From contig CAVPOM010000015.1 of the NCBI GenBank assembly GCA_963707025.1, positions 96,001 through 160,000 on the forward strand: a stretch of 64,000 nucleotides of DNA. The letters are read 5' to 3'. The stretch's first letter is position 1; the number at the start of each line of letters is the position of its first letter. A model generated the notes under the pieces. That model had not been told where the DNA came from, did no database searches, and saw nothing but the letters and a program-made list of their open reading frames with translations. This DNA comes from an uncultured Verrucomicrobiae bacterium (GTDB lineage: Bacteria; Verrucomicrobiota; Verrucomicrobiia; Limisphaerales; Palsa-1400). Position numbers and translations under genes: made by a program. Shown piece by piece: positions 2,534-43,758 of the stretch.

Positions 2534-3067
2534 ATGAAAACGACATTCCGCCAGCTCGCCCTCGGCCTTTTCATCCTGCTTCCGTTGGTCGCGCGGGCCG
2601 AAGACCCCCCCAACCCGGCCATCGCGCCCCATGCGCCGGATCTGGTCGCATTGCAGGGCGATCAATTCGCGCCCTTCAAAGCGGATGAGTTTCTCAAGGC
2701 CCGTTACACCATCCTCTATTTCAGCGCCGGCTGGTGCCCCGACTGCCGGCTCTTTTCCCCGGCTCTCGTCCGGGCCTACGACGCCCAGCCGAAAGGCGCC
2801 GGCCGTTTCGAGGTCTTGTTGTTGACACGGGATAAAACCGAAAAGGACCTGCTGCAATACATGCGCAGTGAAAAGATGAAGTGGCCGGCCCTGGCCTTCG
2901 ACAAAGTGGCGGCGGCCGATGATTTGAAGAAGTTTTATTCGGGCGCCGGCATCCCCTGCCTGACGATTCTGGATCAAAAGGGCGCCGTGGTTTTGCAAAG
3001 CAAGAGCGACAAGGATGCGGTCCGGGTCTTAAAGCAATTGCAGGACTTGCTCGCCGCCAAGGGCTGA
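2534..3067 (+). CDS. Exported thioredoxin-like protein (nucleoredoxin/tryparedoxin type)
   Basis: Signal peptide, LYFSAGWCPDC active site, GIPCL cis-Pro loop. Confidence 0.85.
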   Translation: MKTTFRQLALGLFILLPLVARAEDPPNPAIAPHAPDLVALQGDQFAPFKADEFLKARYTILYFSAGWCPDCRLFSPALVRAYDAQPKGAGRFEVLLLTRDKTEKDLLQYMRSEKMKWPALAFDKVAAADDLKKFYSGAGIPCLTILDQKGAVVLQSKSDKDAVRVLKQLQDLLAAKG

Positions 3068-3113
3068 CGCGCCCGGCCCGTTCCAACCCGCCTTGGCCTG
3101 CCCCGGCGATGTT

Positions 3114-4340
3114 CTAGCGTCCGGCCGCAGAGGTCTTTCCGCAATTCTCCAAAACCACGGCGATGCCTTGCCCGACCCCGATGCACATGGTGCAGAGGGC
3201 GTAGCGTCCGCCGGTTCCGGACAGTTGATGGGCTGCGGTGGTGAGCAGGCGCGCCCCGCTCATCCCCAGGGGATGGCCCAGGGCAATGGCGCCGCCTTGC
3301 GGATTGATGCGCGCATCGTTGTCGGCCAGGCCCAATTGGCGGGAGCAGGCCAGCGCTTGTGCGGCGAAGGCCTCGTTCAACTCAAGGATGGCCATGTCGC
3401 CCAGCGCAAGTCCGAGTCGCTCCAGCAGTTTGCGGGTGGCCGGCACCGGGCCGATCCCCATGATGGTCGGCGCTACTCCGGCGACGGCCGCCCCTAAAAT
3501 GCGCGCGCGCGGAGTCAGTCCATGCCGGGTTACCGCGCTTTCGGAGGCGATCAGCAACGCGGCGGCCCCGTCGTTGATGCCGGAGGCATTGCCGGCGGTG
3601 ACCGTTCCTTGCGGGCGGACGATGGGCTTCAATTGCGAGAGTTTTTCCAGGCTGGTGGCGCGGGGATGTTCGTCCTTCGCCACGAGGATGGGATCCCCTT
3701 TGCGCCGGGGGACCGCGACCGGGATGATTTCCGCGGAGAGACGGCCATCGGCCTGGGCGGCGGCGGTTTTTTCCTGGCTCCACAGGGCGAAGCGATCCTG
3801 GTCTTGCCGGCTGATGGAAAACTGGCCGGCCAGATTTTCCGCCGTTTCCGGCATGGTTTCGATGCCGTAGCGTTCCCGCATCCGTTGATTGACAAACCGC
3901 CAGCCGATGGTGGTATCGTAAATCTCCGGCTGTCGCGCAAACGCGGCCGTGGCCTTGGCCATCACGAAGGGCGCGCGGGACATGCTTTCCACACCGCCGG
4001 CGATGAGAAGCTCGGCCTCTCCCGCGACAATGGCGCGGGCGGCGCCGGCCACGGCTTCCATCCCCGATCCGCACAACCGGTTGACGGTGCAGCCGGAAAC
4101 CGTTTCCGGCAACCCGCAAAGGAGCGCGGCCATGCGCGCGACATTGCGGTTGTCTTCACCCGCCTGGTTGGCGCATCCCAGAATGACGTCATCCACCGCG
4201 GCCCAGTCCACGGCCGGGTTGCGCTCCATGAGCGCTTTGATCGGGAGGGTGGCCAAATCATCCGCCCGGATGGCGGCCAGGGCTTCCCCGTAGCGGCCGA
4301 CCGGGGTGCGGATGGCGTCGCAGATAAAGGCGTGTTTCAT
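3114..4340 (-). CDS. pcaF: 3-oxoadipyl-CoA thiolase-like acetyl-CoA C-acyltransferase (PcaF/PaaJ group)
   Basis: GCANQAGEDNRNVARMA, NRLCGSG, NEAFA, GHPLG, MCIGVGQG motifs; DTTIGWRFVN is typical of PcaF/PaaJ. Confidence 0.9.
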   Translation of the reverse strand: MKHAFICDAIRTPVGRYGEALAAIRADDLATLPIKALMERNPAVDWAAVDDVILGCANQAGEDNRNVARMAALLCGLPETVSGCTVNRLCGSGMEAVAGAARAIVAGEAELLIAGGVESMSRAPFVMAKATAAFARQPEIYDTTIGWRFVNQRMRERYGIETMPETAENLAGQFSISRQDQDRFALWSQEKTAAAQADGRLSAEIIPVAVPRRKGDPILVAKDEHPRATSLEKLSQLKPIVRPQGTVTAGNASGINDGAAALLIASESAVTRHGLTPRARILGAAVAGVAPTIMGIGPVPATRKLLERLGLALGDMAILELNEAFAAQALACSRQLGLADNDARINPQGGAIALGHPLGMSGARLLTTAAHQLSGTGGRYALCTMCIGVGQGIAVVLENCGKTSAAGR

Positions 4341-5695
4341 GCTTTTTTGCCGGTGAGTTGCTCCGCGGCGGCCAGCTCGGCTGGCATCGCTTTGATCTTG
4401 CGGAAACCAGAGAGCAAGACCTCGGTCAGGCGGTCAATTTCCGGCTGGTTCATTGGGGTGGAAAGTGTCCCGGAACAGGTGCTGATCAAAATGATCCCTT
4501 CCTCCAGCGCGTGTTCGATCAGCGCCCGGACCAGCCGGGCCTCCCCGGCGGTGACATAGCTTTCCCGATAGTTTCTCGGAGGCCTGGTCTTCATGTGAAT
4601 GCGGAAAATGGAGCCGCCTCCCGTAACGCACGCCGGAATCCCGGCGCTGCGGATGGCCTCGCCGATTTGACGGCGCGCCACTGCCCCAAGGCGATTGAGG
4701 TTGGCAACTCGTTCGCGGTCGAAGTATTCCATGGCGGCCAGTCCCGCCGTCATCGTGATGGGGTTGGCGGAGAATGTCCCAGAGTGGGGAAAGAGAACCT
4801 TTTCCGCAAGCGGATTAAAAACCTCCATCACCTCCTTGCGGCCGGTGACCGCCCCGACCGGGAAGCCGCCTCCGATCATTTTGCCCAACGCGGTCAGGTC
4901 GGGCCCCTCCGGGAACCACTCCTGTGCCCCCCCATAGGCCGAGCGGTAGGTGATCACTTCGTCGAAAACCAGGAGCGCGCCGTGCTGTTGCGTCCAATTC
5001 CGCAGCGCCTCGATAAACGGCGCCCCCGCCGGGATGAATCCAACCCGATGGGGCATGGGATCCACCAGCACGCAGGCCAGCTCCCCGGCGTGGCGGTCCA
5101 GAATGGCCAGCGCGACTTCCGGATTGTTGAATGGGATGACGATGACCTCATCCAAGGCGGAACGCGGCGTGCCTTGCGCCACCGCAATGCTGCGCGGTTG
5201 TTTGGCCTCGCCCCAATTGGCCGGCTGCGCGGTCTGGCTTACCTCCGCATAATCATACAGACCGTGATAGGCGCCCTCCACCTTGGCGATCTTGGGCCGC
5301 CCCGTGTAGGCGCGCGCCGCCTTGAGGCAGCACATGACAGCCTCCGTGCCTGAATTGACGAAACGGATCTTCTCGAAACCCTTCGTGCGCCGGGTCATGT
5401 GCTCGGCCAGTTCAACTTCAACTTCCGTGGCGAAGGTGTAGCCGGTACCTTTCTGCAATTGCCGGGTCACTGCCTCCACAATCACCGGGTGAGCATGGCC
5501 GTGGATGAGCGAAGCCATGTTGTTGGCGAAGTCAATCCGGCGATGGCCTTCCACGTCGGTCAGATAGCATCCCTCGCCCTTGGACGCGTAGAGCGGATAA
5601 GGACGCCGCAACACCGTGTTGCGGCTCACGCCGCCGGGCAGAACGCCCAGGGCCCGTTCATAAATCTGCCGGCTGCGTGAATAATCGTGCGTCAT
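4337..5695 (-). CDS. Class III PLP aminotransferase (GSA-aminomutase / beta-amino-acid transaminase-like)
   Basis: FVNSGTEA, GAYHG, FDEVIT, LGKMIGGG (PLP Lys), HSGTFSANP; start MTHDYS overlaps the upstream stop (ATGA). Confidence 0.9.
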   Translation of the reverse strand: MTHDYSRSRQIYERALGVLPGGVSRNTVLRRPYPLYASKGEGCYLTDVEGHRRIDFANNMASLIHGHAHPVIVEAVTRQLQKGTGYTFATEVEVELAEHMTRRTKGFEKIRFVNSGTEAVMCCLKAARAYTGRPKIAKVEGAYHGLYDYAEVSQTAQPANWGEAKQPRSIAVAQGTPRSALDEVIVIPFNNPEVALAILDRHAGELACVLVDPMPHRVGFIPAGAPFIEALRNWTQQHGALLVFDEVITYRSAYGGAQEWFPEGPDLTALGKMIGGGFPVGAVTGRKEVMEVFNPLAEKVLFPHSGTFSANPITMTAGLAAMEYFDRERVANLNRLGAVARRQIGEAIRSAGIPACVTGGGSIFRIHMKTRPPRNYRESYVTAGEARLVRALIEHALEEGIILISTCSGTLSTPMNQPEIDRLTEVLLSGFRKIKAMPAELAAAEQLTGKKA

Positions 5696-6411
5696 AGACT
5701 GGGAACGGTTCCCGCCGCCGATCGTTCCGCGAGTGCCGCGGTCCGCCCATCCATCAAGGGTGCGGCGGTCTTTTCCTGCACGGCGCCAAACTCCAGGCCC
5801 GGCGCAATCCTGCGCGCCACCAGCCCGGCGGGGGTCACGTCTATGATGGCCAGGTTGGTGTAGATTCGGTCCACCACGCCTTTGCCGGTCAAGGGATAGG
5901 TGCAGGCGGCCACGATCTTTGGTTCGCCATTTCGGGTGGTGTGTTCGGTCAGGACGAAAATCTTTTTCACCCCCGCCACCAAGTCCATGGCCCCGCCCAC
6001 TGCCGGAATGGCATCGGCGGCGCCGGTGGACCAGTTGGCCAGATCGCCTTGGGCGGAGACTTGCATGGCGCCCAGCACGCAAAGATCAATGTGCCCGCCG
6101 CGAATCATGGCAAAGCTGTCGGCGTGATGAAAATAGGCGGCCCCGGCAATGGCCGTCACCATCTTTTTGCCGGCATTGATCAACTCAGGGTCTTCCTGGC
6201 CGGGCGCCGGCGCCGGTCCCATGCCGAGCAGTCCGTTCTCCGTTTGGAATATCACCTCGCGTCCGGCCGGCACGAATTGGGCCACCAATTCCGGCAGGCC
6301 GATGCCCAGATTCACGCACGCCCCATCCGGAATGTCCTCCGCCACCAGGCGGGCCATTTCCTCCCGGCCCCACTCGGGGCGACATTTGCCGGGTGCCGTT
6401 ACGGGTAGCAT
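5692..6411 (-). CDS. pcaJ: 3-oxoacid CoA-transferase subunit B (PcaJ/ScoB-like)
   Basis: VNLGIGLP, QTENG catalytic Glu, SFAMIRGGHID, PAVGGAMDL. Confidence 0.88.
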   Translation of the reverse strand: MLPVTAPGKCRPEWGREEMARLVAEDIPDGACVNLGIGLPELVAQFVPAGREVIFQTENGLLGMGPAPAPGQEDPELINAGKKMVTAIAGAAYFHHADSFAMIRGGHIDLCVLGAMQVSAQGDLANWSTGAADAIPAVGGAMDLVAGVKKIFVLTEHTTRNGEPKIVAACTYPLTGKGVVDRIYTNLAIIDVTPAGLVARRIAPGLEFGAVQEKTAAPLMDGRTAALAERSAAGTVPSL

Positions 6412-7109
6412 GGGCCCTCCTTGACCAGTTGGGATTCCTGGACCGGGCTGGCTACGACGACCAGACGGCTGACAAAAATTCCGGGTGTGACCACCGTTTC
6501 GGGATCTATTTCACCCGCCTCGACCAACTCCTTGACCTGCGCGATCGCCGTTTTTGCGGCCATGCACATAATGGGGGCAAAATTGCGCGCCGTTTTGTTG
6601 TAAACCAGATTGCCATAGCGATCCGCCCGGGCGGCCTTGACCAGTGCGAAGTCCGCGCACAGGCCATGCTCCATCACATATTCCTGGCCTTGGAATCGGC
6701 GCGATTCCTTGCCGGCCGCCAGCAGTGTGCCGACGGAGGAAGGGGTGTAAAAGGCCGGGATGCCCGCCCCGCCGGCCCGGATGCGTTCGGCCAGGGTTCC
6801 TTGCGGCACCAGCTCCAGCTCGATTTCTCCACGCCGGTAAAGTTCGGGAAAGACCGTCGAATTAGCGCTGCGCGGATAGGAGCAGATCATCTTGCGAACC
6901 TGCCCGTGGGCGATCAACGCCGCCAAGCCCACCCGCCCGCTGCCGGTATTGTTGCTGATCACCGTCAGATGGCGCGCCCCGTGGTCGTACAAGGCGTGAA
7001 TCAGCTCAATCGGGCTGCCAGCTTCGCCAAAGCCGCCAATCATCACCGTCGCCCCATCCGGAATGTCGGCGACGGCGGCGGCCAGCGATTCAACCCGCTT
7101 GTTGATCAT
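6399..7109 (-). CDS. pcaI: 3-oxoacid CoA-transferase subunit A (PcaI/ScoA-like)
   Basis: DGATVMIGGFG, ISNNTG, PQGTLAERIRAGGAGIPAFYT, ARNFAP, TPGIFV. Confidence 0.88.
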   Translation of the reverse strand: MINKRVESLAAAVADIPDGATVMIGGFGEAGSPIELIHALYDHGARHLTVISNNTGSGRVGLAALIAHGQVRKMICSYPRSANSTVFPELYRRGEIELELVPQGTLAERIRAGGAGIPAFYTPSSVGTLLAAGKESRRFQGQEYVMEHGLCADFALVKAARADRYGNLVYNKTARNFAPIMCMAAKTAIAQVKELVEAGEIDPETVVTPGIFVSRLVVVASPVQESQLVKEGPCYP

Positions 7110-8767
7110 CGTCCTGCCTTTGCGGCGTGGGCGGTTGCCCTGGCCCGCCCGGCCCGGGGAAAGTGTTTGCGATGAATGCCGCTCAATTCACTCTCAATCC
7201 CTTTCAACTCGTTTTCGAAAAAGAATTTCGGCGTGTCCAGCGGAACCAGTTTGTCCACCCGCGTTTCCTTCGCGTCGTACTTCGCCAGAAAAACCCGGTC
7301 CATCCAGGCCATGTTGCGGCTTTCGTTGAATTTCAAGGCAAAGACTTTCTCCCCGCCGACTTCGGCGGTGCCCAGAAGGGAGACCTTGCCCGCCGAGCTG
7401 GTCATCGTGATATAGCGCGACGGGCGGTGCAGCGAGGCCAGCGAACGGTAGATGAGGTTGAACACCTTTTCAATATCCGCCAGCGGCGCGGCGAAGTAAT
7501 GTTGCTCGCCGGTGGGGCGCGCGCAGTACATGGCATGAAAACGAACCGAGAGCGCGGCCAGAATGTGGGCCAAATCAATCCAATTCCGCGCCGACCGTTC
7601 CACGTTCACCCGGCCGTTCTTGTCCATGAACAAGCTGACATGGTTCATGATGGGACTTTGGCTGCGCACCACCACGCCGTGGTTTTGCAGCCGGCGCAGG
7701 GCGGCCAGGGTGCTCGGATTGAGCACTTCGCGCGGAGTCGAAAAGTGAGCCATCCAGCAAAGCTGCACCCCGTTGTCGCGGAGCGTATCGAACAAGGCCA
7801 GCATCGGGTCATACTCGTGGCTGAGGATCAGCCCGGGCTGGTAAGTCAGCAGGCGTGAGCCGAGCCGGACGGCCCGGATGTGGAGCAATTCGGGATCTTC
7901 GAGGATGGGCCTCACATATTGGCGCAGGCGTTCCACCGGCAGATAACCCGCGTCCCCCCCGGTGATCAGGATGTCGGTCACCTCCGGATGCGCCCTCAGA
8001 TATTTATGGACCTGGGCGATGTCCTCCTGGATGAACATGTCGTGATCGCCCCGCACCTGCGCATGGCGGAAACAATAGGTGCAATAGGCGAAACAATTCT
8101 GCGTGGTCTGATCGAAAATGAGTTGGCACTGGGGGTATTTGTGCTGGCTGCCATCAAGAATTTCTATGCCCCCTTCTGCCGCCTCCAGCCACGGCTTGTT
8201 CAGCAACTGTTTGCCATCGTGCGGATTAGTCTCCTCCATGTAATCCTCCACCACCTGCTGTCGTTGCTCCTCCGTCCTGGCCGCCACGTAGGCCTCCGTC
8301 ACTTTCTTCCCCATCATGCCCGGCTGGGGGAAGACGAGCTGATACATGGAATCCTGTTCATACTGGTCCCAGTTGATGCTGTTCAAAATGTGCCGGGAGG
8401 CCTTGAACCGATAGACTTCCACGAAAAGCTCCCGTTCCGGGATGTGGCCGGGCTGGATGCCGTTTTTTGCCAGAAGCCTGACCACTTCCCTGAACCCCTC
8501 CAAGCCGGAGTATTGTTCCCGGTCGTGGAAGAGAAAGGGCCGTGATTCGAGAAGCCCGGAGTGCTCCGGGTAGGTGGCCTGCAAACGGCTCAAGACCCCG
8601 GCAGGCAGGAGCCTTTCGGATTGGATGATCTGACGGGTTTCCTCCGGGTAGCCGTAGCGATCCAGCATCTTGGCGACATCGGCTGCCGTCACCGTGTCCG
8701 TGACTTTGGCCGGGATCGTCCCGGCCTTGCGGGAGTCGGATCTGTTTCCGTTCAACGCCATCTTCAT
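7106..8767 (-). CDS. KamA-family radical SAM / PLP 2,3-aminomutase-like protein (553 aa)
   Basis: QHKYP, CFAYCTYCFR (CxxxCxxC plus Arg), DILITGGD, MAHFSTPRE, QSPIM, SSAGKV (candidate PLP Lys). Confidence 0.88.
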   Translation of the reverse strand: MKMALNGNRSDSRKAGTIPAKVTDTVTAADVAKMLDRYGYPEETRQIIQSERLLPAGVLSRLQATYPEHSGLLESRPFLFHDREQYSGLEGFREVVRLLAKNGIQPGHIPERELFVEVYRFKASRHILNSINWDQYEQDSMYQLVFPQPGMMGKKVTEAYVAARTEEQRQQVVEDYMEETNPHDGKQLLNKPWLEAAEGGIEILDGSQHKYPQCQLIFDQTTQNCFAYCTYCFRHAQVRGDHDMFIQEDIAQVHKYLRAHPEVTDILITGGDAGYLPVERLRQYVRPILEDPELLHIRAVRLGSRLLTYQPGLILSHEYDPMLALFDTLRDNGVQLCWMAHFSTPREVLNPSTLAALRRLQNHGVVVRSQSPIMNHVSLFMDKNGRVNVERSARNWIDLAHILAALSVRFHAMYCARPTGEQHYFAAPLADIEKVFNLIYRSLASLHRPSRYITMTSSAGKVSLLGTAEVGGEKVFALKFNESRNMAWMDRVFLAKYDAKETRVDKLVPLDTPKFFFENELKGIESELSGIHRKHFPRAGRARATAHAAKAGR

Positions 8768-9190
8768 AGCTTGTGTTTTGTGTCTGGCAACTGCCCGATT
8801 TTGCTCACGCGGGGCCAGCCGATTTGCCCCGCGGCACTCACCTTGCACGGGGCGGGCGCAGTATCAGGTTGGATCAAATATACGCAGCCTGAGCCGAATC
8901 ACTTGCCCTCGGTTGGCAAAAGCCTACCATTTTTTGGCAGGCCGGAAAATCCTGATTTCAATCCCATTCCCAAGCTCAATCCCAATGCCAATCCCGTTAA
9001 ACTATTCCCCCGGAACGCCGATGATTATCCATGGCGACGACCATCATGGCTCAATGGACCATGTCGTTGCTAAAACAGCGGGCGATATGAACGTTAAAAC
9101 GAGCGAAGAGGGCTTGGGTTCATTGGAACGAAGTGTTTGGACGGTCGAGGCGGTTGCCTCCCGGTGCCGAGAGACTTGCCCATCATTCCC

Positions 9191-10108
9191 ATGAACTCGC
9201 CCAGCCCAACGAGAGACTATCTGGATGACGTGGTGCGAAAGATTCACAATTCGCGTCAAGTCATTCTCAATCCAGCCGAACGCTACTTGAATGGCGTTGC
9301 CAGTCTGCCTCCGGCCCCGATGCTCATGACCGAATTGCTGGCTCTGTTCCAGGACCCTGACCGCGATGTGGACCACGCTGTGGAACTGATCAGTTACGAG
9401 CCTGTCTTAACGGCCCAGATTCTTCGCACCTGCAACAGCGCCTGTTTCGCCGGCGAGCAGCGCCCCGGGGACATCTTTGAGGCCGTTTCCAGAATTGGGT
9501 TTTACCAGGTTTACTCCCTGGTGGTTTCCATTTTTGGCGCCAGGGCAAAATCCATGGAGGGAGCCGACCAGGGGGTGAAGGTGGACGAGTTATGGCGTCA
9601 TTCCGTGGCGGTCGCCGTGTCGGCTGCCGCGGTGGCGGAGGAAACCGGGCAGGCCAAGACGGTCGCTTTCACGGCGGGGTTGTTGCACGACATTGGCAAG
9701 CTGGTGCTGGCTTCGGCTGAGCGCGAGCGTTACGCCCGATTAATTCAAAGCGCGAAAGACCAGGGCCTGGCCTTGAGCGCGTTGGAACGCTCCGCCTTGG
9801 GAACGGACCATGCCGAACTGGGCGGTGAATTGATGAGCCGCTGGAAATTGCCGCCGGATGTCGTCGCCGCCGTCCGCCATCACCACGACCTTGAGGCCCC
9901 GCCGCCCTACGGCGAGTTGACCGCGGCCGTGCAGGTCGGGGACATGATCGGGCATCAACTTTTCGCCGATGATCTGGCCAACACCGCCTTTTTGCCAACC
10001 TCGCCAGCCTCCCTGGAGGCGCTCCAACTCAGTCCCGGCGCAGTTCCCCGCCTCCTGGCCAAAACGCAAGCCGAGATGGAAAAAGTCAAGGGCATGCTGG
10101 AGATATAA
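9191..10108 (+). CDS. HDOD domain signalling protein
   Basis: LPPAP, EPVLTAQILRTCNS, LWRHSVAVA, AGLLHDIGK, DHAELGG..WKLP, HH. Confidence 0.9.
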   Translation: MNSPSPTRDYLDDVVRKIHNSRQVILNPAERYLNGVASLPPAPMLMTELLALFQDPDRDVDHAVELISYEPVLTAQILRTCNSACFAGEQRPGDIFEAVSRIGFYQVYSLVVSIFGARAKSMEGADQGVKVDELWRHSVAVAVSAAAVAEETGQAKTVAFTAGLLHDIGKLVLASAERERYARLIQSAKDQGLALSALERSALGTDHAELGGELMSRWKLPPDVVAAVRHHHDLEAPPPYGELTAAVQVGDMIGHQLFADDLANTAFLPTSPASLEALQLSPGAVPRLLAKTQAEMEKVKGMLEI

Positions 10109-16154: not shown

Positions 16155-16190
16155 TTGACATTTTGTCATCTTCCGACTAAATGTCTGAAC
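16155..16190 (+). promoter_or_regulatory. Putative sigma70 promoter with overlapping palindromic operator
   Basis: TTGACA(16155)-N17-TAAATG; TGACA-TTT-TGTCA palindrome at 16156-16168. Confidence 0.5.
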
Positions 16191-16787
16191 ATGTCAGTGG
16201 CTCTCGAACCGCTTGCAAAAATTCGGGGCAAGTTGGGAATAACCCAACATGACCTCGCAGAGAAACTCGGAATCTCGCGCCAGCATCTGTCGAAGCTGGA
16301 GAATTCCCCAGGTCCGTTGACTCCAAAACTGGCGCGCCGCGTGGCGGAGGTGTTTCGGAATTTGGGCATGCCACAGGCGGGACCGCGCAGTGGAATTCGA
16401 GCGATTCCAGTTCGATCTTGGGCACAGGCCGGTATTGGAGTTGATTTTGAGGAACTTCCGCTCGATTGGCAAAAGCAAATAGCAACGGATTGTCCCGACG
16501 AACAGGCCTTTGCGGTTGAAATCCAAGGGGATTCAATGGAGCCCAAATACTTGCAGGGAGATATCGCCGTGTTAATGCCGGCTCACCAACCGCGAAATGG
16601 CAGCTTGGTGGTCGCCCGATTAGAGGAGGGAGTTGTGTTCAAAGTGTTCACCGTGCGCGACCAATCGCCGATAAGAATTTGCTCCTTTACGAGTTACAAT
16701 CCAGTATTTCAACCAATTGAGGTGTCGGAGAGCAAGGTCATTTGGAATTATCCGGTGTATCAAATCGTGCGTCAGGTCTGGCGCTGA
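16191..16787 (+). CDS. XRE HTH + S24 peptidase (CI/LexA-like) repressor
   Basis: LGITQHDLAEKLGISRQHLSKLE HTH; AQAG cleavage-like site; GDSMEP Ser and FK Lys. Confidence 0.9.
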   Translation: MSVALEPLAKIRGKLGITQHDLAEKLGISRQHLSKLENSPGPLTPKLARRVAEVFRNLGMPQAGPRSGIRAIPVRSWAQAGIGVDFEELPLDWQKQIATDCPDEQAFAVEIQGDSMEPKYLQGDIAVLMPAHQPRNGSLVVARLEEGVVFKVFTVRDQSPIRICSFTSYNPVFQPIEVSESKVIWNYPVYQIVRQVWR

Positions 16788-16792
16788 ATTGT

Positions 16793-18363
16793 ATGCATCT
16801 CTCAACCCTCCTCGACACACTCGGCTACACCGGTTCTAGAAATTTTCTCCAGCGAGGAACGGCTGCCTTTGATCGTGCGCCGGATATTGGGCATATCCTT
16901 CGGACGGCTGCGCGGCGCCGGGCATGCCGGCTTGAAGGTGTTTATTCGCTGCGTCCATTCAACGACGAAGGATCGCCAGTTCCGGTTGTTTATGTCTGCG
17001 AAGCTGATGACAGCGCAGCAGCGGACAAAATTCATGCCCTTGTCTGGAACCAAGATATCGTTCCCTTCGTCCTTGTTCGTACGCCTGCTGGCTTGCGGCT
17101 TTATTCCGGGTTCGAGTGCAAGCACGCAGGGACTCACGAACGCCAGGGCATCCTCGAACCTTTGATTCAGTTCAATGAAGTTGCCGACCGGCTTGCCGAA
17201 TTCCATGCGAGCGCAATTGATTCCGGAGAACTCTGGCGCAGGCGTGGAGACGACGTTCAGCCCGACAAACGTGTTTATTGGAGCCTGCTGGACAACCTTA
17301 AACAGCTCGCCAAGAAATTCGCTGCCGAGTTCGGAGCAGCAAAGGCGAAAGCGGTTATCCATCCCCTCATCGGGAAATACGTCTATCTCTATTATCTGAA
17401 GGACCGCGGATTTCTCTCTCGGCGGCGGCTGGTGGAATGGGAAATCGAACATGACTCCGTTTACGGTCGCAACGCTACTTTGGCCGGACTTCGTGCCGTC
17501 TGCGGTAAACTGGACGGCTTCCTCAACGGTCGCGTCTTCCCGCTAAAGCTCCATGGCGAAAGCGCGCCTACGGAAGAGCAAATCCAGCGTATTGCTGGGG
17601 CTTTTGCTGGCGATACGTTCGCTGGCAGTTGGCAATTTCATCTTCCATTCACTGCATTCAAGTTCGATTTCATCCCCATCGAGACACTTTCGATGATTTA
17701 CGAGCAGTTCCTCCATCTCCCGGACAAACCTGACGCGGACGACGAGGACGAGCACAGCGAGGGGCGCAAGGCCGGCGCATATTATACGCCCATCCCGGTA
17801 GTCAACTACATGCTCGCCGAAATGGACCGGCGACGGCGCCTTCTGCGTGGTGTCCGAGTGTTCGATCCCAGTTGTGGATCGGGCGCGTTTCTCGTGCAGT
17901 GCTACCGGCGACTTATTGAGCGCGAGTTTATTGCGCACAAAAAGAAGCCTGCTCCGCATGAACTCGCCACGTTGCTGAAGCGCCACATCTTTGGCGTCGA
18001 TATGGATGAGGATGCCTGTAGCGTCGCCGAATTCAGCCTTTATCTGACGCTGCTCGACTACGTGGAACCCAAGGACCTCATTGACCATCCGCGTTTCCGC
18101 CTTCCAACTCTGCGGAAAAACAACATCTTCTGCTCCGACTTCTTCAAGGTGCTGCCTTTCAAGACGAAGTTCCACTGGATTGTAGGAAATCCACCCTGGA
18201 AAAAGCTCATTCCGCATAAATTGGAAAAGCGCGATAAAGGTGCATTGCAATGGATGAAGAAAAACGCCGCCCTTATGCCGGTGGGTGACAATTCTCTTCT
18301 ACAGGCCTTCGCATGGCGCTGCCGCGAGTTTGTGACCGCAGATGGTGGCTGCGCATTGCTTGT
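16793..18363 (+). pseudogene. N6-adenine DNA methyltransferase (gamma class; type IIG/HsdM-like), C-terminally truncated
   Basis: IYEQFL, GAYYTP, DPSCGSGAFL, IFGVD, IVGNPPW; runs into IS3 sequence at about 18364. Confidence 0.88.
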
Positions 18364-18835
18364 CCATCCCAGCACGTAACGACTCCACCAATCCATCACC
18401 GCCACCAAATACATAAACCCAGTTGCCATAGGCACATACGTAATGTCCGAACACCAAACCTGATCCGGTCCCGTCACTGCCAAATTGCGTAACAGATACG
18501 GATAAATCTGGTGCCCCATCTCCCGCAGACTCGTCTTGGGCTTGGCGTAAATCGCCTCGATCCCCATCAACCGCAGCAGCCGCACCACCCGTTTGCGATT
18601 GATGGTCAAACCCTCCCGGCGCAACAGCACGGTCAGTTTGCGGCTGCCATAAACCGGGTGGTCCAAATGCATCTGGTCCAACCGCCGCATCAGCGCCAGG
18701 TTCTCCTCTGTCTCCGGACAGCACTGGTAATAATAACTGCCACGGCACACCGCCAGCAGCTCGCACTGGCGCCGCACGCTGAGCTGCGGATCGGGAGCGA
18801 TTAAACATGTTAAAGCCCCAGTTGCCTGGACTTTT
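18364..18835 (-). pseudogene. IS3 transposase OrfB, truncated within the DDE domain
   Basis: SVRRQCELL, YGSRKL, NRKRVVRLLRLMG, WCSDITY, YLVAVMD; in the -1 frame from AAAAAAAAG (18839-18831). Confidence 0.88.
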
Positions 18836-25544: not shown

Positions 25545-28500
25545 TTACTGTCTGCTGAACCAGACGCTGGAACTGCCGCCGCGATTGAGCCGGGCGTAGT
25601 TGGGAATGGCCAGGAGCGGGCTGCCGTTGGTGTAAGCGCCGGTGATTTCCCAGAAACCGCCCAGCAGGCTGGTGTGCTGGAGGGACAAAGGGGCGTTGGA
25701 GCCAAGCACCAGGCCGGTATTTTGATCCACGCTCTCGATATTGTAGATCAGCGGCCCATACTGCAAAGCGACCAACCCCACATTGGCGGCCACCTTGGTG
25801 GAACATCTGATTTGTTGAATGGCCATCGGCAACGCCAGGTCCACCCGGTCCCCCGCCGTCCACGTCCGGGTGATGACGGCATATCCATTGGTGACCCCCG
25901 GCGAAATGGGCGACCCATTCAACCGGAGGGAGGCCAGGCCGCTGATCGGCGGCGTGGGAGTATAAAGGGCGCTCAGGGTCCGGTTCGGCGCGCGGATGAA
26001 CAGGGTGAAAAGCGCCGGGGTGGAAGGGTTGACGGTGATGGCCACCGTGTTGGTCCAAGGATAATCGGTGGCTTGAACCATCGTCACCGTGGCGCCGGAG
26101 ATGTTGGAAATGGTGACGCTGCCGCCGATGAACAGATTGAGGTAAATGGCATTGGAGGAGCGGGCATACATCCAAGTGGGCAGTTGGAAAAGCGTTCTGG
26201 CGGCGTTGCCATAACAGCAGGGAACACCCGTCCAGGAAACGCGCGCCGCGCTGGAATTGAGCGGGTTGGGATAGAAGATATTGCTGGCCTGGTCGTCGAG
26301 GGAGCCGAGGACTTCATTATAGAGGACGTTCTCCATCAGGTCGGCATATTTGGCATCCTGACAGGCGAGGTTCATCTTGTGGAAGAAAAACAGAGAGCCG
26401 CAACCGGCGCAGGTTTCGCAATAGGATGCATTGGGCAGCGAATAGTTGTTGCCAAAGCCCTCGGAGGTCTCGCCGCTGCCCGCCCCGCCCGTCAGGTAGT
26501 ATTTTTTATTGACGAAATTATCGAAGAACGACAGCGCCGCGCTTTGATAGTCCGGAGTCTGGGTTTCGATGGCCACATCGGCCACGCCGGAACAGAGGTA
26601 TTGGCTGCGCACGGCGTGGCCCACGACCTCATATTGCTGTTTGACCGGCAACTGGCTCTGGTCGTAGTCGGCGCCGTCGTTTTCCGCCGCGTTGGCGGCG
26701 GGAGTGCCCCGGCAATCCATCAGGAACTTGGCCAAGTTGATATACTTCTGGCCGTTGGTCGGTCCCTCGAATTCATTGACGAAGCGTCCCAGATGCACCA
26801 GGGCCTGTTCCATGTTCTCATGTCCGTCGAACCAGCTCTTGACGCCCGGCCCCAGATGGGCGCACCAGCAATCGGCCAGCTTTTTGGCGGCGTTGTAGAA
26901 GGTGGGATCGGTCCGGCCCGTGCTCAGAAAATGCGCCAGACCGGCTTCGATAAAATAACCGCCCACGTAGCCTTCGTGATCGGTGTTAATGGTCCAGCGG
27001 CCCAGACCCCGCAGGGTCGTATAGGTGTGCAGATAGCCGTCGGACTCCTGGGCGCTGAGAATGAGCGGAATCCAATAAGCCAGATTGGTCTGGAAGGCGG
27101 CCTGGGCGGCGAGGATGGCAGGATCACCCTGCGCATTATAGGTCAGCGCATAGCTCATGGCTTCGACGGTGTTCAAGGTGTAGGCGTCCGCCCACGGGTC
27201 CACATTGGGCACCGCATAGGCCCGTCCCGCCAGTTTGTTGCCGGCCTGAATGAAACTGTAGATGTTGCCCTGCGCCAGATTGGTGTTGTTCAGTTGTGCG
27301 TAAAGGTGGGGAATCCAATGGACGAGGGTGTTTTTCAACCGGTAATTCCAGAGCGAACTGTTGATGAGGTAGGAATTCTTTTCCACATACACCGGCAGGG
27401 CATGGGCCGCCGGAAACGGAGGCGCCACGGTCAGGTTCAGCGTGTTGCTGCTGTAGTATTGACCATCAAAGGCCGTCAATTGAATCACCGCCGGGCCGGA
27501 AGGCCCGCCCACGGCGGCGCTGGTGACCAAGGCGCTGGCATTGCTGAAAGCGACGGTGTTCGCGCCGGAGGCCAGACTCCACGCCACAACCGGGTGGAGG
27601 TAAAGCTTGCCGTCGTCCTGCACGGTTCCTGTCAAATAAGTGTTTCCGCCCACCACCACCTCGCGATCCACGCCGCCGCCCACGCTGGGGGGAAAGTTGG
27701 CCGAAGCGCCCGTGTCATAAACCTTCCATTGCAAGATGCCGGTGGACTGGGTCCCGGCGGAAGTGAACAAGAGCCGGAGCGCCGTGGTGGTAACGGGTGT
27801 AAAAGTGGTGGTGTTAAACTGGTTGGAGGACACTCCCAGCCCGACCGGGTTGCCCACCAAATCCCAGTTGGTCCCGTCCCAGTATTCGAGGCTGCAGGAG
27901 CTTGGGGCGGAGATGCCGGCGCCATCCTCCCACCAATAAACGTCCATCCTGGCGGTGTTGATGGGCTGGCTCCAATCGTATTCCACCCATTGCGTCCCGG
28001 TTTGCGGCCAATTGCCGTAGGCTCCCTGGCTGTCGTCGGCGGAGCTGGATGGATTGTCACCATTCTGGATGACGCCGAGGGTTTGCCACGCGGATACATA
28101 GGAGGTGGCCGGCGTGGCCAACGGGCCGAGATTGATGCCGGGCGGCAACGAATCAAACTGCGCAATGCGATAAAATCCCGCCGGCGCCATCGCCCCGCCC
28201 CGCTGGAGATACGACATCAGGGAGTTGGTGGCCTGAACGGGGATCGGGAAAAGATTCTCCCAGTTCGCCGGCGCCAAGGAAGCGGCGTATTGCACCAGGT
28301 AATACTGGGTTGGATTGCCGTTGAAAGTAATATTCACATTGGTCCCTTGCACGGCCGCCTGCGCCAAAAGCGGAGGGGGCGGCGGGCCGAGTTGGACCAG
28401 AAAAACGCGGTCGCCCACCAGGATGTTGCACGCATTGTCCGGCCCGCCACTTTCGCCCAACGTGCTGCCATTGTAGGCCGCGCCGCCGGCATAGACATCG

Positions 28501-29114
28501 TTGGAAGTGCCGAGGCACTCGAAGTAAGCCGTGACGGTGGGACTGCTGACATCAAATCCGTAAGTCTTGCCAGGGGCCAGTGTGAAGGGATTGGCGAAGG
28601 CGAATCGCAACCACATCCCGTCGCCGTTGGTCGAACTGTGCGCGCCTGACCAGCCCTCTGTCCCCGTCGTGGTGTAAGTTTCGCTATAGAGGACAAAGCC
28701 CGCCGTGCCGGCCTGGGCCGGATCGGTCACGCGGATGGAGAGGGTGATGCCGCTGTTCATTTCCCAGTAAGTGAGCGCGGTATTGGCCGTATAGCCGGCG
28801 TGTTGCAGCCAGACCGACGCCATCGCGTAGCCGCCGGGATTATTGCCGGTGGTGAAGGTCTGGCCCTGGTCGGGACGGTCGCCGGCCACATAGGTGAAGG
28901 CATCGTTGGCCTGGCCGTCGGCGAAAGCGGAGCCGTTGCCCACGTTGGCGCCGTCGTGACTGGCGCCAACAAAGTTGCAGATATCATTGGGTCCCGGTGT
29001 TGGGGCGGTGGTGGAAAAGGTGAGTGTGGCCGCCCAACCGGACCACGCCAGGCCCAGCAGCGCCCAGGCCAGCCATGCCCCGGTGGAAATCGGATGTGGC
29101 GTGCGCAATTTCAT
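25545..29114 (-). CDS. Secreted multidomain GH127-like glycoside hydrolase (beta-L-arabinofuranosidase family)
   Basis: Signal peptide; HEGY, GHAVR, SEGFG, YCETCA, PCC motifs; discoidin-like and Ig-like N-terminal modules. Confidence 0.85.
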   Translation of the reverse strand: MKLRTPHPISTGAWLAWALLGLAWSGWAATLTFSTTAPTPGPNDICNFVGASHDGANVGNGSAFADGQANDAFTYVAGDRPDQGQTFTTGNNPGGYAMASVWLQHAGYTANTALTYWEMNSGITLSIRVTDPAQAGTAGFVLYSETYTTTGTEGWSGAHSSTNGDGMWLRFAFANPFTLAPGKTYGFDVSSPTVTAYFECLGTSNDVYAGGAAYNGSTLGESGGPDNACNILVGDRVFLVQLGPPPPPLLAQAAVQGTNVNITFNGNPTQYYLVQYAASLAPANWENLFPIPVQATNSLMSYLQRGGAMAPAGFYRIAQFDSLPPGINLGPLATPATSYVSAWQTLGVIQNGDNPSSSADDSQGAYGNWPQTGTQWVEYDWSQPINTARMDVYWWEDGAGISAPSSCSLEYWDGTNWDLVGNPVGLGVSSNQFNTTTFTPVTTTALRLLFTSAGTQSTGILQWKVYDTGASANFPPSVGGGVDREVVVGGNTYLTGTVQDDGKLYLHPVVAWSLASGANTVAFSNASALVTSAAVGGPSGPAVIQLTAFDGQYYSSNTLNLTVAPPFPAAHALPVYVEKNSYLINSSLWNYRLKNTLVHWIPHLYAQLNNTNLAQGNIYSFIQAGNKLAGRAYAVPNVDPWADAYTLNTVEAMSYALTYNAQGDPAILAAQAAFQTNLAYWIPLILSAQESDGYLHTYTTLRGLGRWTINTDHEGYVGGYFIEAGLAHFLSTGRTDPTFYNAAKKLADCWCAHLGPGVKSWFDGHENMEQALVHLGRFVNEFEGPTNGQKYINLAKFLMDCRGTPAANAAENDGADYDQSQLPVKQQYEVVGHAVRSQYLCSGVADVAIETQTPDYQSAALSFFDNFVNKKYYLTGGAGSGETSEGFGNNYSLPNASYCETCAGCGSLFFFHKMNLACQDAKYADLMENVLYNEVLGSLDDQASNIFYPNPLNSSAARVSWTGVPCCYGNAARTLFQLPTWMYARSSNAIYLNLFIGGSVTISNISGATVTMVQATDYPWTNTVAITVNPSTPALFTLFIRAPNRTLSALYTPTPPISGLASLRLNGSPISPGVTNGYAVITRTWTAGDRVDLALPMAIQQIRCSTKVAANVGLVALQYGPLIYNIESVDQNTGLVLGSNAPLSLQHTSLLGGFWEITGAYTNGSPLLAIPNYARLNRGGSSSVWFSRQ

Positions 29115-38076: not shown

Positions 38077-39528
38077 TTAACTTCGGCTTCGTTTTTGCGC
38101 TTTGCTCTTGTGAACCTTATAGTGAGGCCCTGTTTCGTGTAATTGGAGGGGTTTAGTTGCCCCAAGCCATTGCGCCCATTGCTCAATAAGGCTGTCCAAT
38201 TCAGCATGACAAGGCTCCTGGGCAAAAAACGTGAAGTCGTTGATGATGTGGTGTCGGCTGACCTTCTTCGGAGGTTGTTTTTCGATTTGGTCTGGCCCAA
38301 AAAGCGTCAGATTGGCCTCCGCCTCCACTTCTGGCTCAGAAGATTCCTGCCTCGTCACAAAGTCACCCATCGGCTCAAGACCTTGGCCGAAGCGACGAAG
38401 GGTTGCGCTGATCGCCTCACGGCTGTTGTCCACCCCGATCCAGGAACGTCCCAGATGGGAAGCCGCGCCTAAGGTCGTGCCGGAACCGGAGAAGCAATCC
38501 AGGACCAGATCGCCAGCATTGCTGGAGGCCTCGATGATTCGCGCCAGCAAGTCCGGATTCTTCTCGGTGGGGTAGCCGGACACGGCGATGTTCTGATTGT
38601 GGGCGTCGCGAAAATCCAACCAGATGTCTTGCACAGGGATGCCGTCGCTTTGATCGAAGAAAATCTTTCGGCGGGGGTTGCCGCTGGGAGACCAATAGAT
38701 TTCGCCCCGCGCATCCATCTGGTCGAGCACCCGGGGCGGATATTGCCAGTGTTTGCCGGGAGGGGGCAGTTTGCCGCGCCACAACTGACCCGTTTCTCCA
38801 TTGCGCACACCCGGCGCATGCACGGGCACCTTCTTGTAGAGCCGGCCCGTCCCGTTCTCCAAATACTGGTATTCTTTGGCGGCTTTTTCTTCTGTCCATG
38901 GATCCACCGGGCGATGCCAGACGTAGTTTTGACCCCTGGTGTAGAACAAGATGAAGTCAGCGATGTTCCCATAAACTTTTCGCGTGTAGTTCTTTGGATT
39001 GCACTTCTTGCGCGTTATCCAATTGCGAAAATTGGTCCGTCCAAACACTTCGTCCATCAGCGCTTTGACCAGGAACGCCATATTGTCGTCCAAGTGAACA
39101 TAGATGGAACCGTCATCGGCCAGGATCTCCCGCAACAAGATCAGACGTTCGCGAAGAAATTCCAAATAGTGGGCGCCTTCCCTCAGGTCCGTGTAGGCAT
39201 CATTTTGGCTGCGCGATTGGAAAATGCTCTTGGTCGCATACGGTGGGTCAATATAAATGAGACGAACTTTTCCGCACACCGTGGGATTGCGCGCCAGCGC
39301 AGCCAAAATGCCGAGGTTGTCGCCGTAATATAGTCGGTTACATGCCGGCTGATCGTTGTCCTTTGGCCACAATCGGCGGCAAACCGCAGGGGGCGTTCTC
39401 AGAATCTCCTCACGGTTCTTCTTCCCTTCGTAAGCAAGATGGACATCCGTGTTGCTGGCATCGCTTCCGTTCCCAAGAGTAGTGTCTTGCGGGCTTTGCC
39501 ATTTTGTTCTGGGAATTCCAGTTGCCAT
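38077..39528 (-). CDS. Site-specific DNA methyltransferase, beta class (N4-C/N6-A)
   Basis: YIDPPY before VLDCFSGSGTT; YPTEK. Confidence 0.92.
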   Translation of the reverse strand: MATGIPRTKWQSPQDTTLGNGSDASNTDVHLAYEGKKNREEILRTPPAVCRRLWPKDNDQPACNRLYYGDNLGILAALARNPTVCGKVRLIYIDPPYATKSIFQSRSQNDAYTDLREGAHYLEFLRERLILLREILADDGSIYVHLDDNMAFLVKALMDEVFGRTNFRNWITRKKCNPKNYTRKVYGNIADFILFYTRGQNYVWHRPVDPWTEEKAAKEYQYLENGTGRLYKKVPVHAPGVRNGETGQLWRGKLPPPGKHWQYPPRVLDQMDARGEIYWSPSGNPRRKIFFDQSDGIPVQDIWLDFRDAHNQNIAVSGYPTEKNPDLLARIIEASSNAGDLVLDCFSGSGTTLGAASHLGRSWIGVDNSREAISATLRRFGQGLEPMGDFVTRQESSEPEVEAEANLTLFGPDQIEKQPPKKVSRHHIINDFTFFAQEPCHAELDSLIEQWAQWLGATKPLQLHETGPHYKVHKSKAQKRSRS

Positions 39529-39538
39529 ATCGGTTTCC

Positions 39539-40429
39539 TTACGAAAGCAGCCACTCAAGCGTTATCCGTTCCGGCACCATCCGGAGGGTGGCGACCAGAA
39601 TCTTGCCGGGTCGGCTTCGCTCCAAACGGGCATAGTCATCCCACATGGAGCCGAGCAACAGACCGGGGCCGTCGTTAATGAAGATGACTTTTGGGCCAAG
39701 CCTGTGTTTTCGGGCATAGCTCAGAATCTCATCGGCACAGTTTTGGTAACCTCCGGTGCGGTCGTCTTCTTGAGACCCGCCCCGGTCGGAGTCATATCGG
39801 GCCAAGCCTATCGCGAGAAGCTCCCTTCCAGTGATGTCGTAAACCACAAAGTCAACCGGGCGGTCCGGTTTGGGATATTTCTCGAAAATATTTCCGAGCA
39901 GAATATCCTTGCCCGCTCGTTCCGGTCCCTGGATCACCAAATCAGGCAAAGTGGAGCGGAACAACGCAAAGAACCGTTCTGTAAGATCGTAGCCTTTCTT
40001 GCCACGGTCTTTATATTCCCACAAAACCGCGCACAATGCCTCGTCCGGCATCGGGCGCGACATGAACGCTGCATGGACCTTCTGAATTGGGCGGAAACCT
40101 TTCCCAAATTCCTCGCAGATGGTCGCCGCTTTGGATTTGTGTTTGAGCATTTCCACGGGCGTTTCGGGACTGACATATTTCCGAAAAACGCGCGCGAGTT
40201 GGACTCTCATAGCGCCGTCGGGCTCCCCGGCGATTTGCAGGAACAATCGGACCGACGACTCCGAGGACCGCAGAAGCTGGCCAAAGCGAACTAGTACCGG
40301 TTTGTAAAGCTCGCAAGCATCTTTGAGAATGTCAGGGTAATACTCGCCCGTGGCGAGAGTAAGCCAGTTCCTTGCATCCGCTTTGTAATCGGCGAAAGCC
40401 TTTGGTTTGTCTTTACGAGCTTGTTTCAA
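39539..40429 (-). CDS. Type II restriction endonuclease, BstEII-like
   Basis: FRKYVSPETPVEML, EYKDRGKKGY, ARYDSDRGGSQEDDRTGG, NDGPGLLLGSMW match BstEII as I recall it; adjacent methyltransferase; start uncertain. Confidence 0.8.
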   Translation of the reverse strand: MKQARKDKPKAFADYKADARNWLTLATGEYYPDILKDACELYKPVLVRFGQLLRSSESSVRLFLQIAGEPDGAMRVQLARVFRKYVSPETPVEMLKHKSKAATICEEFGKGFRPIQKVHAAFMSRPMPDEALCAVLWEYKDRGKKGYDLTERFFALFRSTLPDLVIQGPERAGKDILLGNIFEKYPKPDRPVDFVVYDITGRELLAIGLARYDSDRGGSQEDDRTGGYQNCADEILSYARKHRLGPKVIFINDGPGLLLGSMWDDYARLERSRPGKILVATLRMVPERITLEWLLS

Positions 40430-43709: not shown

Positions 43710-43733
43710 AAGGCGGTATATATACCGCCTTAT
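43708..43733. promoter_or_regulatory. Perfect 26-bp palindrome between the divergent IS genes
   Basis: ATAAGGCGGTATA|TATACCGCCTTAT. Confidence 0.6.
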
Positions 43734-43758
43734 TGACACGTCTGCTACTCTTTTCTTT

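Follow-up and report, generated by a model that had tools for sequence, protein, structure and literature searches.

A conserved five-gene operon in a Verrucomicrobiae bacterium, headed by a divergent relative of lysine 2,3-aminomutase and predicted to degrade 2-aminoadipate by way of 3-aminoadipate

The window considered here, by which is meant the whole stretch of DNA that was analysed, comprises 64,000 nucleotides from a Verrucomicrobiae bacterium (Limisphaerales; Palsa-1400; assembly GCA_963707025.1, contig CAVPOM010000015.1, positions 96,001-160,000), and its open reading frame (ORF) map includes a block of five genes, all on the minus strand, between positions 3114 and 8767. In order, these encode a 553-residue radical S-adenosylmethionine (SAM) protein (7106..8767, starting from an ATG at 8767), given the name KamL here, which is a divergent member of the KamA family of radical-SAM, pyridoxal phosphate (PLP) enzymes and a predicted 2-aminoadipate 2,3-aminomutase; subunit A of a 3-oxoacid coenzyme A (CoA)-transferase of the PcaI/ScoA subfamily (6399..7109, 236 residues, TIGR02429); subunit B of the same enzyme, of the PcaJ/ScoB subfamily (5692..6411, 239 residues, TIGR02428); a class III (GSAM-like) aminotransferase (4337..5695, 452 residues from an ATG at 5695, PF00202), predicted to be a 3-aminoadipate transaminase; and a PcaF-type 3-oxoadipyl-CoA thiolase (3114..4340, 408 residues, TIGR02430 equivalog). 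What is proposed for this block, with a probability that may be put at roughly 60%, is that it degrades L-2-aminoadipate, via a shift of the amino group from C2 to C3, to succinyl-CoA and acetyl-CoA.

Read on the minus strand, stop and start codons overlap as ATGA at three of the four junctions (7106-9, 5692-5 and 4337-40), and the fourth, between the two CoA-transferase subunits, is a 13-base ATG...TAA overlap (6399-6411); all four have the form of translationally coupled junctions, and the block that of an operon. The longest ORF for KamL opens at a GTG at 8848, and the ATG at 8767 was taken as the start because 553-residue relatives align over 100% of the query. Between KamL and a divergent gene for an HDOD-domain protein (9137-10108, plus strand) lies an intergenic region (8768..9136) within which the operon promoter is presumed to fall; a simple promoter scan gave no sigma-70-like site there on either strand (results being at or below chance), and on the gene strand no terminator-like sites beyond chance were found between the operon genes. 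The composition of the operon is not unusual, since its GC fraction of 0.626 (window mean 0.611, standard deviation 0.016) is equalled or exceeded in 24 of 117 equal-sized segments. Among public sequencing runs, no RNA run was listed as containing this stretch, and the 20 DNA runs that were listed cover small shares of it (0.07-0.12). The coordinates, strand and overlaps of the five genes are as they were given in the first-pass annotation of this DNA, and its family labels for all five proteins match those reached using Pfam, NCBIfam and the nearest solved chains. Its statement that the window has no ring-cleavage genes, no lysine-fermentation partners (KamDE, Kdd, Kce) and no epmA-like gene likewise holds for the 51 larger window ORFs, as scanned with Pfam; two GNAT acetyltransferases are encoded in the window, both more than 22 kb from the operon.

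Relatives of KamL turned up in 352 stretches in a pattern scan covering one genome per species, and the 80 loci retained from these for analysis carry nine phylum labels (Pseudomonadota, Planctomycetota, Bacteroidota, Thermodesulfobacteriota, Verrucomicrobiota, Sumerlaeota, Myxococcota, Eiseniibacteriota and Actinomycetota). The earlier proposal had been made to stand or fall by whether the gene set is conserved in other genomes, and conserved it is: the five genes are colinear in the window order in 59 of the 80 loci, in one locus the thiolase gene is relocated, 12 run into a contig end but hold every gene that could fit, two contain N in their sequence, three lack only the thiolase within 10 kb, and in the last three, all from Colwelliaceae, KamL stands alone, with a block for PcaI, PcaJ, aminotransferase and thiolase found elsewhere in each of the three genomes. 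This five-gene arrangement is more than a matter of chance. Of nine proteins encoded next to the block in the window, none recurs among the 80 loci, not even in L001, the relative with 85% identity, so that it is the block itself that forms the conserved unit. KamL was found in none of 200 other sampled genomes of the same class as the window. A quick KamL tree places most phyla as single clades, with a few mixed placements, and identity between phyla is 60-70%; taken together these suggest that the five-gene cassette has moved between lineages. Among the carriers that are in culture are several species of Shewanella (S. atlantica HAW-EB5 and S. canadensis HAW-EB2 being two of them), Photobacterium sagamiensis, Pseudoalteromonas denitrificans DSM 6059 and Litorilituus lipolyticus.

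Placing KamL among known proteins gives a clear answer only at the level of the family. It scores 24.7 bits against Pfam Radical_SAM (threshold 29.5) and 47-65 bits against six NCBIfam KamA-family models with cut-offs of 199-650, the match spanning only residues 203-378; neither the KamA family model TIGR00238 (63.4 bits against 199.2) nor the equivalogs for lysine 2,3-aminomutase (TIGR03820, 59.6 against 525.4) and glutamate 2,3-aminomutase (TIGR04368, 53.8 against 650) are reached. Because the family cut-off and both equivalogs are missed, KamL was filed as a new divergent branch belonging to no named subfamily. Its sole sequence match in the PDB is nevertheless lysine 2,3-aminomutase (LAM) from Clostridium subterminale (2A5H, E 3e-12), and a Foldseek search with the AlphaFold model also puts 2A5H at the top (E 7.9e-8, probability 1.0, TM 0.40/0.53), this being the only entry at E<=0.001 (the two matches are its chains A and B); the modelled fold is thus LAM-like. 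With the conserved motifs described below, the match to 2A5H bears out at family level the initial description of the protein as KamA-like. Clustering at 50% gathers KamL into one full-length cluster.

The next relatives outside this cluster (proteins P0124-P0235) are 25-39% identical, about 400-610 residues long, uncharacterised and below every KamA-family cut-off, and a search of the ESM Atlas gave only unnamed or generically named KamA-like clusters. Many of the proteins P0124-P0235 have Arg at the column of LAM Asp293, and they may include further aminomutases.

Given scores so far under every KamA-family cut-off, extra N- and C-terminal parts, and nearest relatives that are uncharacterised too, it might be asked whether KamL is an aminomutase at all, or whether the module might run in the direction of synthesis, from succinyl-CoA and acetyl-CoA through 3-oxoadipate and 3-aminoadipate to 2-aminoadipate or some beta-amino-acid product, all four steps being reversible in principle. 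This is unlikely. The CxxxCxxC motif (C225/C229/C232, aligned with C125, C129 and C132 of LAM) and R234 (aligned with R134) are invariant in all 80 loci, the S/TGGD motif is present, and K461, which is also invariant in the 80, aligns with K337 of LAM (the GGGGK lysine) both in global hhalign and in a bridged MAFFT alignment, albeit with low alignment confidence in that part; K337 is the lysine that we take to form the internal aldimine with PLP. The iron-sulphur motif, the motifs of the SAM and PLP regions and the PLP lysine are therefore all conserved. As to direction, the neighbours of the module are catabolic dehydrogenases, LysR regulators, amino-acid importers and chemoreceptors, and the thiolase equilibrium in general favours cleavage, so that flux towards degradation is predicted.

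KamL differs from LAM at the pair of positions corresponding to D293 and D330, which hold the epsilon-ammonium group of lysine in LAM (residue numbers for LAM being taken from an alignment of the host genome's canonical KamA to 2A5H). In the bridged MAFFT alignment the D293 column is occupied by R417, which is invariant in the 80 loci, and the D330 column by T454, a position that is Ser in 49 loci and Thr in 31. An Arg at the D293 column would amount to a reversal of charge at the site for the side-chain amine of lysine, and fits a substrate with a distal carboxylate. Public annotations name KamL relatives lysine 2,3-aminomutase, and a scheme can be drawn in which that name is right: a transaminase or dehydrogenase, together with an aldehyde dehydrogenase (ALDH), would remove the C6 amino group of beta-lysine to give 3-aminoadipate, after which the last three steps would be the same. 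This appears quite improbable, however, as both Asp positions that bind the epsilon-amine in LAM are replaced, one of them by an invariant Arg, the score on the lysine equivalog is only 59.6 bits against 525.4, and the host has a separate canonical KamA with both Asp residues and 453 bits to 2A5H. That protein (412 residues; contig C3, locus L089 1405-2643, plus strand) also retains the GGGGK lysine, and its gene lies apart from the operon and outside any lysine-fermentation cluster.

Among the downstream enzymes, the thiolase bears on which carbon skeleton is degraded. The window thiolase scores 682.5 bits on the pcaF equivalog TIGR02430 (cut-off 597), and among solved structures it comes closest to 8GQH (568 bits) and to 6PCA-6PCD, which are beta-ketoadipyl-CoA thiolases (554-564 bits). 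Across the module as a whole, 59 of 60 thiolases exceed the same cut-off (the exception, from L070, scoring 588.9 bits), and all 60 exceed that of the 3-oxoadipyl-CoA thiolase subfamily. In the host genome (88% complete) there is neither a match to pcaD nor a second PcaF-level thiolase, and the end enzymes of the operon are consequently not fed by aromatic ring cleavage there; an aromatic source of 3-oxoadipate, considered as a candidate for this genome, was ruled out on the same grounds.

The aminotransferase scores 208 bits on PF00202 and 324 bits on the HemL models (TIGR00713 and NF000818), which is below their cut-offs of 527.3 and 398, and its nearest solved chain is 6K8H, at 411 bits, with the beta-transaminases 2YKU, 4AO9 and 6IZ9 following at 213-217 bits. 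6K8H is a Sphaerobacter thermophilus omega-transaminase reported to be used on beta- and gamma-amino acids (PMC10589169). For the CoA-transferase, subunit A scores 352.4 bits on TIGR02429 (cut-off 128.5) and subunit B 294.3 bits on TIGR02428 (cut-off 243.55), these being models that do not separate enzymes for 3-oxoadipate from those for acetoacetate; the nearest solved chain to subunit A is ScoA 3CDK, at 229 bits. Since ScoA relatives act on short 3-oxoacids, and since the same four activities would be needed, a hydrophobic route might be entertained in which leucine is converted through beta-leucine and 3-oxo-4-methylpentanoate to isobutyryl-CoA and acetyl-CoA, but it is very improbable: the module thiolases are PcaF-type, the position for distal binding in KamL carries an invariant Arg, and no branched-chain catabolic genes recur as neighbours in the loci, though L045 does have a 3-hydroxy-3-methylglutaryl-CoA lyase and a biotin carboxylase upstream.

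If the substrate is 2-aminoadipate, as is preferred here, one would hope to find genes for its supply, and in part of the sample these adjoin the module. A gene for L-piperideine-6-carboxylate dehydrogenase, scoring 792-818 bits where the equivalog cut-off is 730, is found no more than 10 kb from KamL in seven of the 80 loci (L001, L015, L045, L050, L051, L054 and L055); these represent four lineages (Verrucomicrobiota, SAR324, deltaproteobacterial and Motiliproteus), and the position and strand of the gene vary. In L001 it is accompanied by lysine 6-transaminase (564 bits against a cut-off of 520.8; 401 bits to 2CIN), the pair being divergent from KamL and about 450 bp away, and lysine 6-transaminase exceeds its cut-off in all four Verrucomicrobiota relatives tested. 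The host genome has the same transaminase-dehydrogenase pair on contig C7, at about 263.9-266.8 kb (L088 8899-11324 and upstream), and most likely makes 2-aminoadipate from lysine by these two enzymes. Other genes near the module include one of saccharopine-dehydrogenase fold in L045, L050 and L054 (on the module strand in two of the three), a pipecolate-oxidase-like gene in L051 and a D-amino-acid-dehydrogenase-like gene in L015. The neighbouring lysine 6-transaminase and ALDH, together with a lysine-dehydrogenase-like gene, could in principle take beta-lysine, as the scheme that begins with lysine 2,3-aminomutase would have it, but both the ALDH and the transaminase score above cut-off on the equivalogs of their canonical reactions.

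The degradation of 2-aminoadipate that is favoured here would then proceed as follows. Lysine 6-transaminase and piperideine-6-carboxylate dehydrogenase would first turn lysine into 2-aminoadipate. Bound to KamL as a PLP aldimine, this would have its amino group moved from C2 to C3, giving 3-aminoadipate, and KamL would do so, by analogy with LAM, using the SAM-derived 5'-deoxyadenosyl radical chemistry that is established for that enzyme. The class III aminotransferase would next convert 3-aminoadipate to 3-oxoadipate, the PcaIJ-type CoA-transferase would convert this to 3-oxoadipyl-CoA, presumably taking CoA from succinyl-CoA, and the PcaF-type thiolase would cleave 3-oxoadipyl-CoA to succinyl-CoA and acetyl-CoA. 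The two middle steps might instead occur in the opposite order, the transaminase then acting on a CoA ester, for which the acyl-CoA beta-transaminase Kat of lysine fermentation provides a precedent (PMC3149608).

Each catalytic activity in this scheme, like the identity of its substrate, is predicted from sequence. The general route, from alpha-amino acid to beta-amino acid, 3-oxo acid, 3-oxoacyl-CoA and thiolysis, had already been put forward in the first-pass annotation, and the family assignments and conservation now support it. The same is true of the substrate that it preferred, L-2-aminoadipate, which still has the standing of a prediction but is favoured because of the PcaF-level thiolases (59 of 60), the adjoining supply genes and the Arg at the D293 column, the loss of both Asp residues pointing the same way; glutamate and leucine, which it had named as alternatives, fit less well. 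We consider there to be slightly better than an even chance that KamL is the first 2-aminoadipate 2,3-aminomutase, that it initiates an oxygen-independent, redox-neutral route encoded by a cassette present in at least nine phyla, and that it would be the first member to be characterised of an Arg-bearing clade.

A number of observations weigh against all this. As regards KamL, the AlphaFold model is of moderate quality (mean pLDDT, the predicted local distance difference test score, of 68), alignments by HMMER (whether with a single sequence or a family profile) and by local hhalign end near residue 378, and the C-terminal fragment alone has no PDB match at E<=10. Alignment of the C-terminal part being weak, the mapping of D293, D330 and K337 rests on global hhalign and on a MAFFT alignment in which 26 intermediate relatives serve as a bridge. 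The two methods differ by up to two residues in where they put the D293 column, which is at C415 in global hhalign as against R417 in MAFFT. The CoA-transferase is not separable from ScoAB by these comparisons, and since ScoA enzymes are the solved chains closest to it, family membership leaves the 3-oxoacid that it uses unspecified. The supply genes, for their part, are far from universal: piperideine-6-carboxylate dehydrogenase exceeds its cut-off in only 17 of 50 module genomes tested (in seven of which it lies beside the module), with one more genome scoring 723 bits and six in which an ALDH is distantly similar (346-390 bits). At E<=1e-100 nothing matches the dehydrogenase in the genomes of Shewanella, Photobacterium, Pseudoalteromonas, Bacteroidota and Colwelliaceae, and lysine 6-transaminase was found in none of five dehydrogenase-less module genomes tested. 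A recognisable source of 2-aminoadipate is in this way missing from about half of the module genomes tested, and in those without the dehydrogenase the substrate would have to be imported, made in another way, or different. Even in the host, neither the transaminase nor the dehydrogenase is encoded in a single frame, each gene being split between two (with one TAG in the transaminase). An RND permease gene nearby (L088 5606-8714) is split likewise, which makes indels in the assembly the likely cause, the alternative being that the pair are pseudogenes.

Several of these points would be accommodated if the same enzyme logic served some other acidic amino acid, for example if glutamate were converted through beta-glutamate and 3-oxoglutarate to malonyl-CoA and acetyl-CoA, or 2-aminopimelate through 3-oxopimelate to glutaryl-CoA and acetyl-CoA. 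An Arg at the D293 column would suit any distal carboxylate, the subfamily model for the CoA-transferase does not discriminate between substrates, about half of the tested genomes have no recognisable source of 2-aminoadipate, and a DapF-like gene adjoins the module in L055. Such a substrate is nevertheless fairly unlikely, since all but one of the 60 module thiolases pass the equivalog for 3-oxoadipyl-CoA thiolase and the adjoining supply genes yield 2-aminoadipate, not glutamate or aminopimelate, while for glutamate in particular there is the score of KamL on the glutamate 2,3-aminomutase equivalog (53.8 bits against 650). The DapF-type epimerase gene of L055 (7960-8916, minus strand) stands beside the module, with a LysR regulator on one side of it and an amino-acid ABC transporter on the other, and its product might interconvert D and L forms of the substrate.

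Were 2-aminoadipate indeed the substrate, the consequences would be of some interest. The disposal of 2-aminoadipate by bacteria, after either the lysine 6-transaminase or the saccharopine steps, is poorly settled; to our knowledge the known onward routes all run through 2-oxoadipate, and we know of almost no biology for 3-aminoadipate. The proposed pathway is assembled from known kinds of enzyme in a new combination, and a 2,3-shift that feeds the end enzymes of the beta-ketoadipate pathway would be a new catabolic solution, one that skips oxidative decarboxylation and yields succinyl-CoA and acetyl-CoA, one of each. The natural substrates of radical-SAM aminomutases would gain a fourth class, 3-aminoadipate would acquire a role in biology, and the enzymes could find practical use in the production of beta-amino dicarboxylates or, working in reverse, in chemistry of the adipate type. 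No description of an aminoadipate aminomutase or of a 3-aminoadipate pathway was found in the literature searched (most subscription journals falling outside the search), and among the matches listed the term "3-aminoadipic" occurred only in metabolomics, meteorite and review texts.

Some further features of the loci may be recorded. The usual neighbours of the module are LysR regulators, amino-acid ABC importers and chemoreceptors, with a BCCT transporter in Motiliproteus; the gene for this BCCT-family transporter precedes KamL in the Motiliproteus-type loci L024, L025, L036, L042 and L053 (and, more weakly, in L044), a gene of PreA-like DHO_dh/4Fe-4S type is found near KamL in loci of the same type, and a hotdog thioesterase gene lies directly before KamL in nine loci (L024, L025, L036, L042, L052, L053, L054, L059 and L060). 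A betaine-like substrate, for which the BCCT transporter and the thioesterase might have been hints, was rejected because a PLP aminomutase requires a primary amine. HGLS-family genes (PF07063, described in Pfam as 2-oxoadipate dioxygenase/decarboxylase) occur near the module in five loci (L057, L060, L063, L068 and L077), where they are short HGLS/DUF1338-family genes (about 270 residues), four of them in Bacteroidota about 2.3 kb downstream and one in Motiliproteus upstream; the host genome has no HGLS match.

Within the window itself, the thiolase stop is followed after 27 bases by the start of a 121-residue ORF (2721-3086, minus strand), which has neither a Pfam match nor a counterpart in the 80 related loci, and may not be a gene. 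Further away, a gene for an HTH/S24 peptidase repressor-like protein overlaps one for an MmeI/Eco57I-type DNA methyltransferase (16155-18379), a second, N6/N4 DNA methylase is encoded at 38077-39558 and a DDE transposase at 42222-43739, a region that looks variable or mobile. In a protein of 1189 residues (25545-29114, minus strand), the C-terminal half contains a catalytic domain of GH127 beta-L-arabinofuranosidase type, and the N-terminal 630 residues match nothing in Pfam.

It remains to set the operon beside the systems that it most resembles. KamL shares with LAM the CxxxCxxC and S/TGGD motifs as well as an Arg and a lysine that align with R134 and K337, but is longer (553 residues as against 416) and has Arg and Ser/Thr at the D293 and D330 columns; and it is linked to PcaIJF-type genes instead of to lysine-fermentation or ablB genes. 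Glutamate 2,3-aminomutase (TIGR04368) is a parallel in being a KamA-family enzyme for an acidic amino acid, as is predicted for KamL, and it too has non-acidic residues in place of the two Asp of LAM; the difference is that the enzymes downstream of KamL are, by family, specific for C6 compounds. With the clostridial fermentation of lysine (PMC3149608) there is a common plan of a radical-SAM 2,3-aminomutase acting first, followed later by a beta-transaminase, a CoA-transferase and a thiolase-like cleavage. That route, however, depends on KamDE to shift a second amino group and on Kdd and Kce, partners that are missing both from the 51 window ORFs scanned and from the neighbours that recur across the 80 loci; and the substrate predicted here is 2-aminoadipate instead of lysine.

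The later steps resemble the end of the beta-ketoadipate pathway (PcaIJ and PcaF), the CoA-transferase passing the subfamily cut-offs and the thiolase the pcaF equivalog, but ring-cleavage and lactone steps are absent (from the 51 window ORFs and, in the case of pcaD, from the host genome), and the 3-oxoadipate would derive from an amino acid. Finally, there is a likeness to the route from lysine through piperideine-6-carboxylate to 2-aminoadipate, the upstream enzymes of which are encoded in the host genome and adjoin the module in relatives; what would distinguish the present pathway from the HglS route is the proposed onward step, which is a shift of the amino group to C3 and not transamination to 2-oxoadipate.

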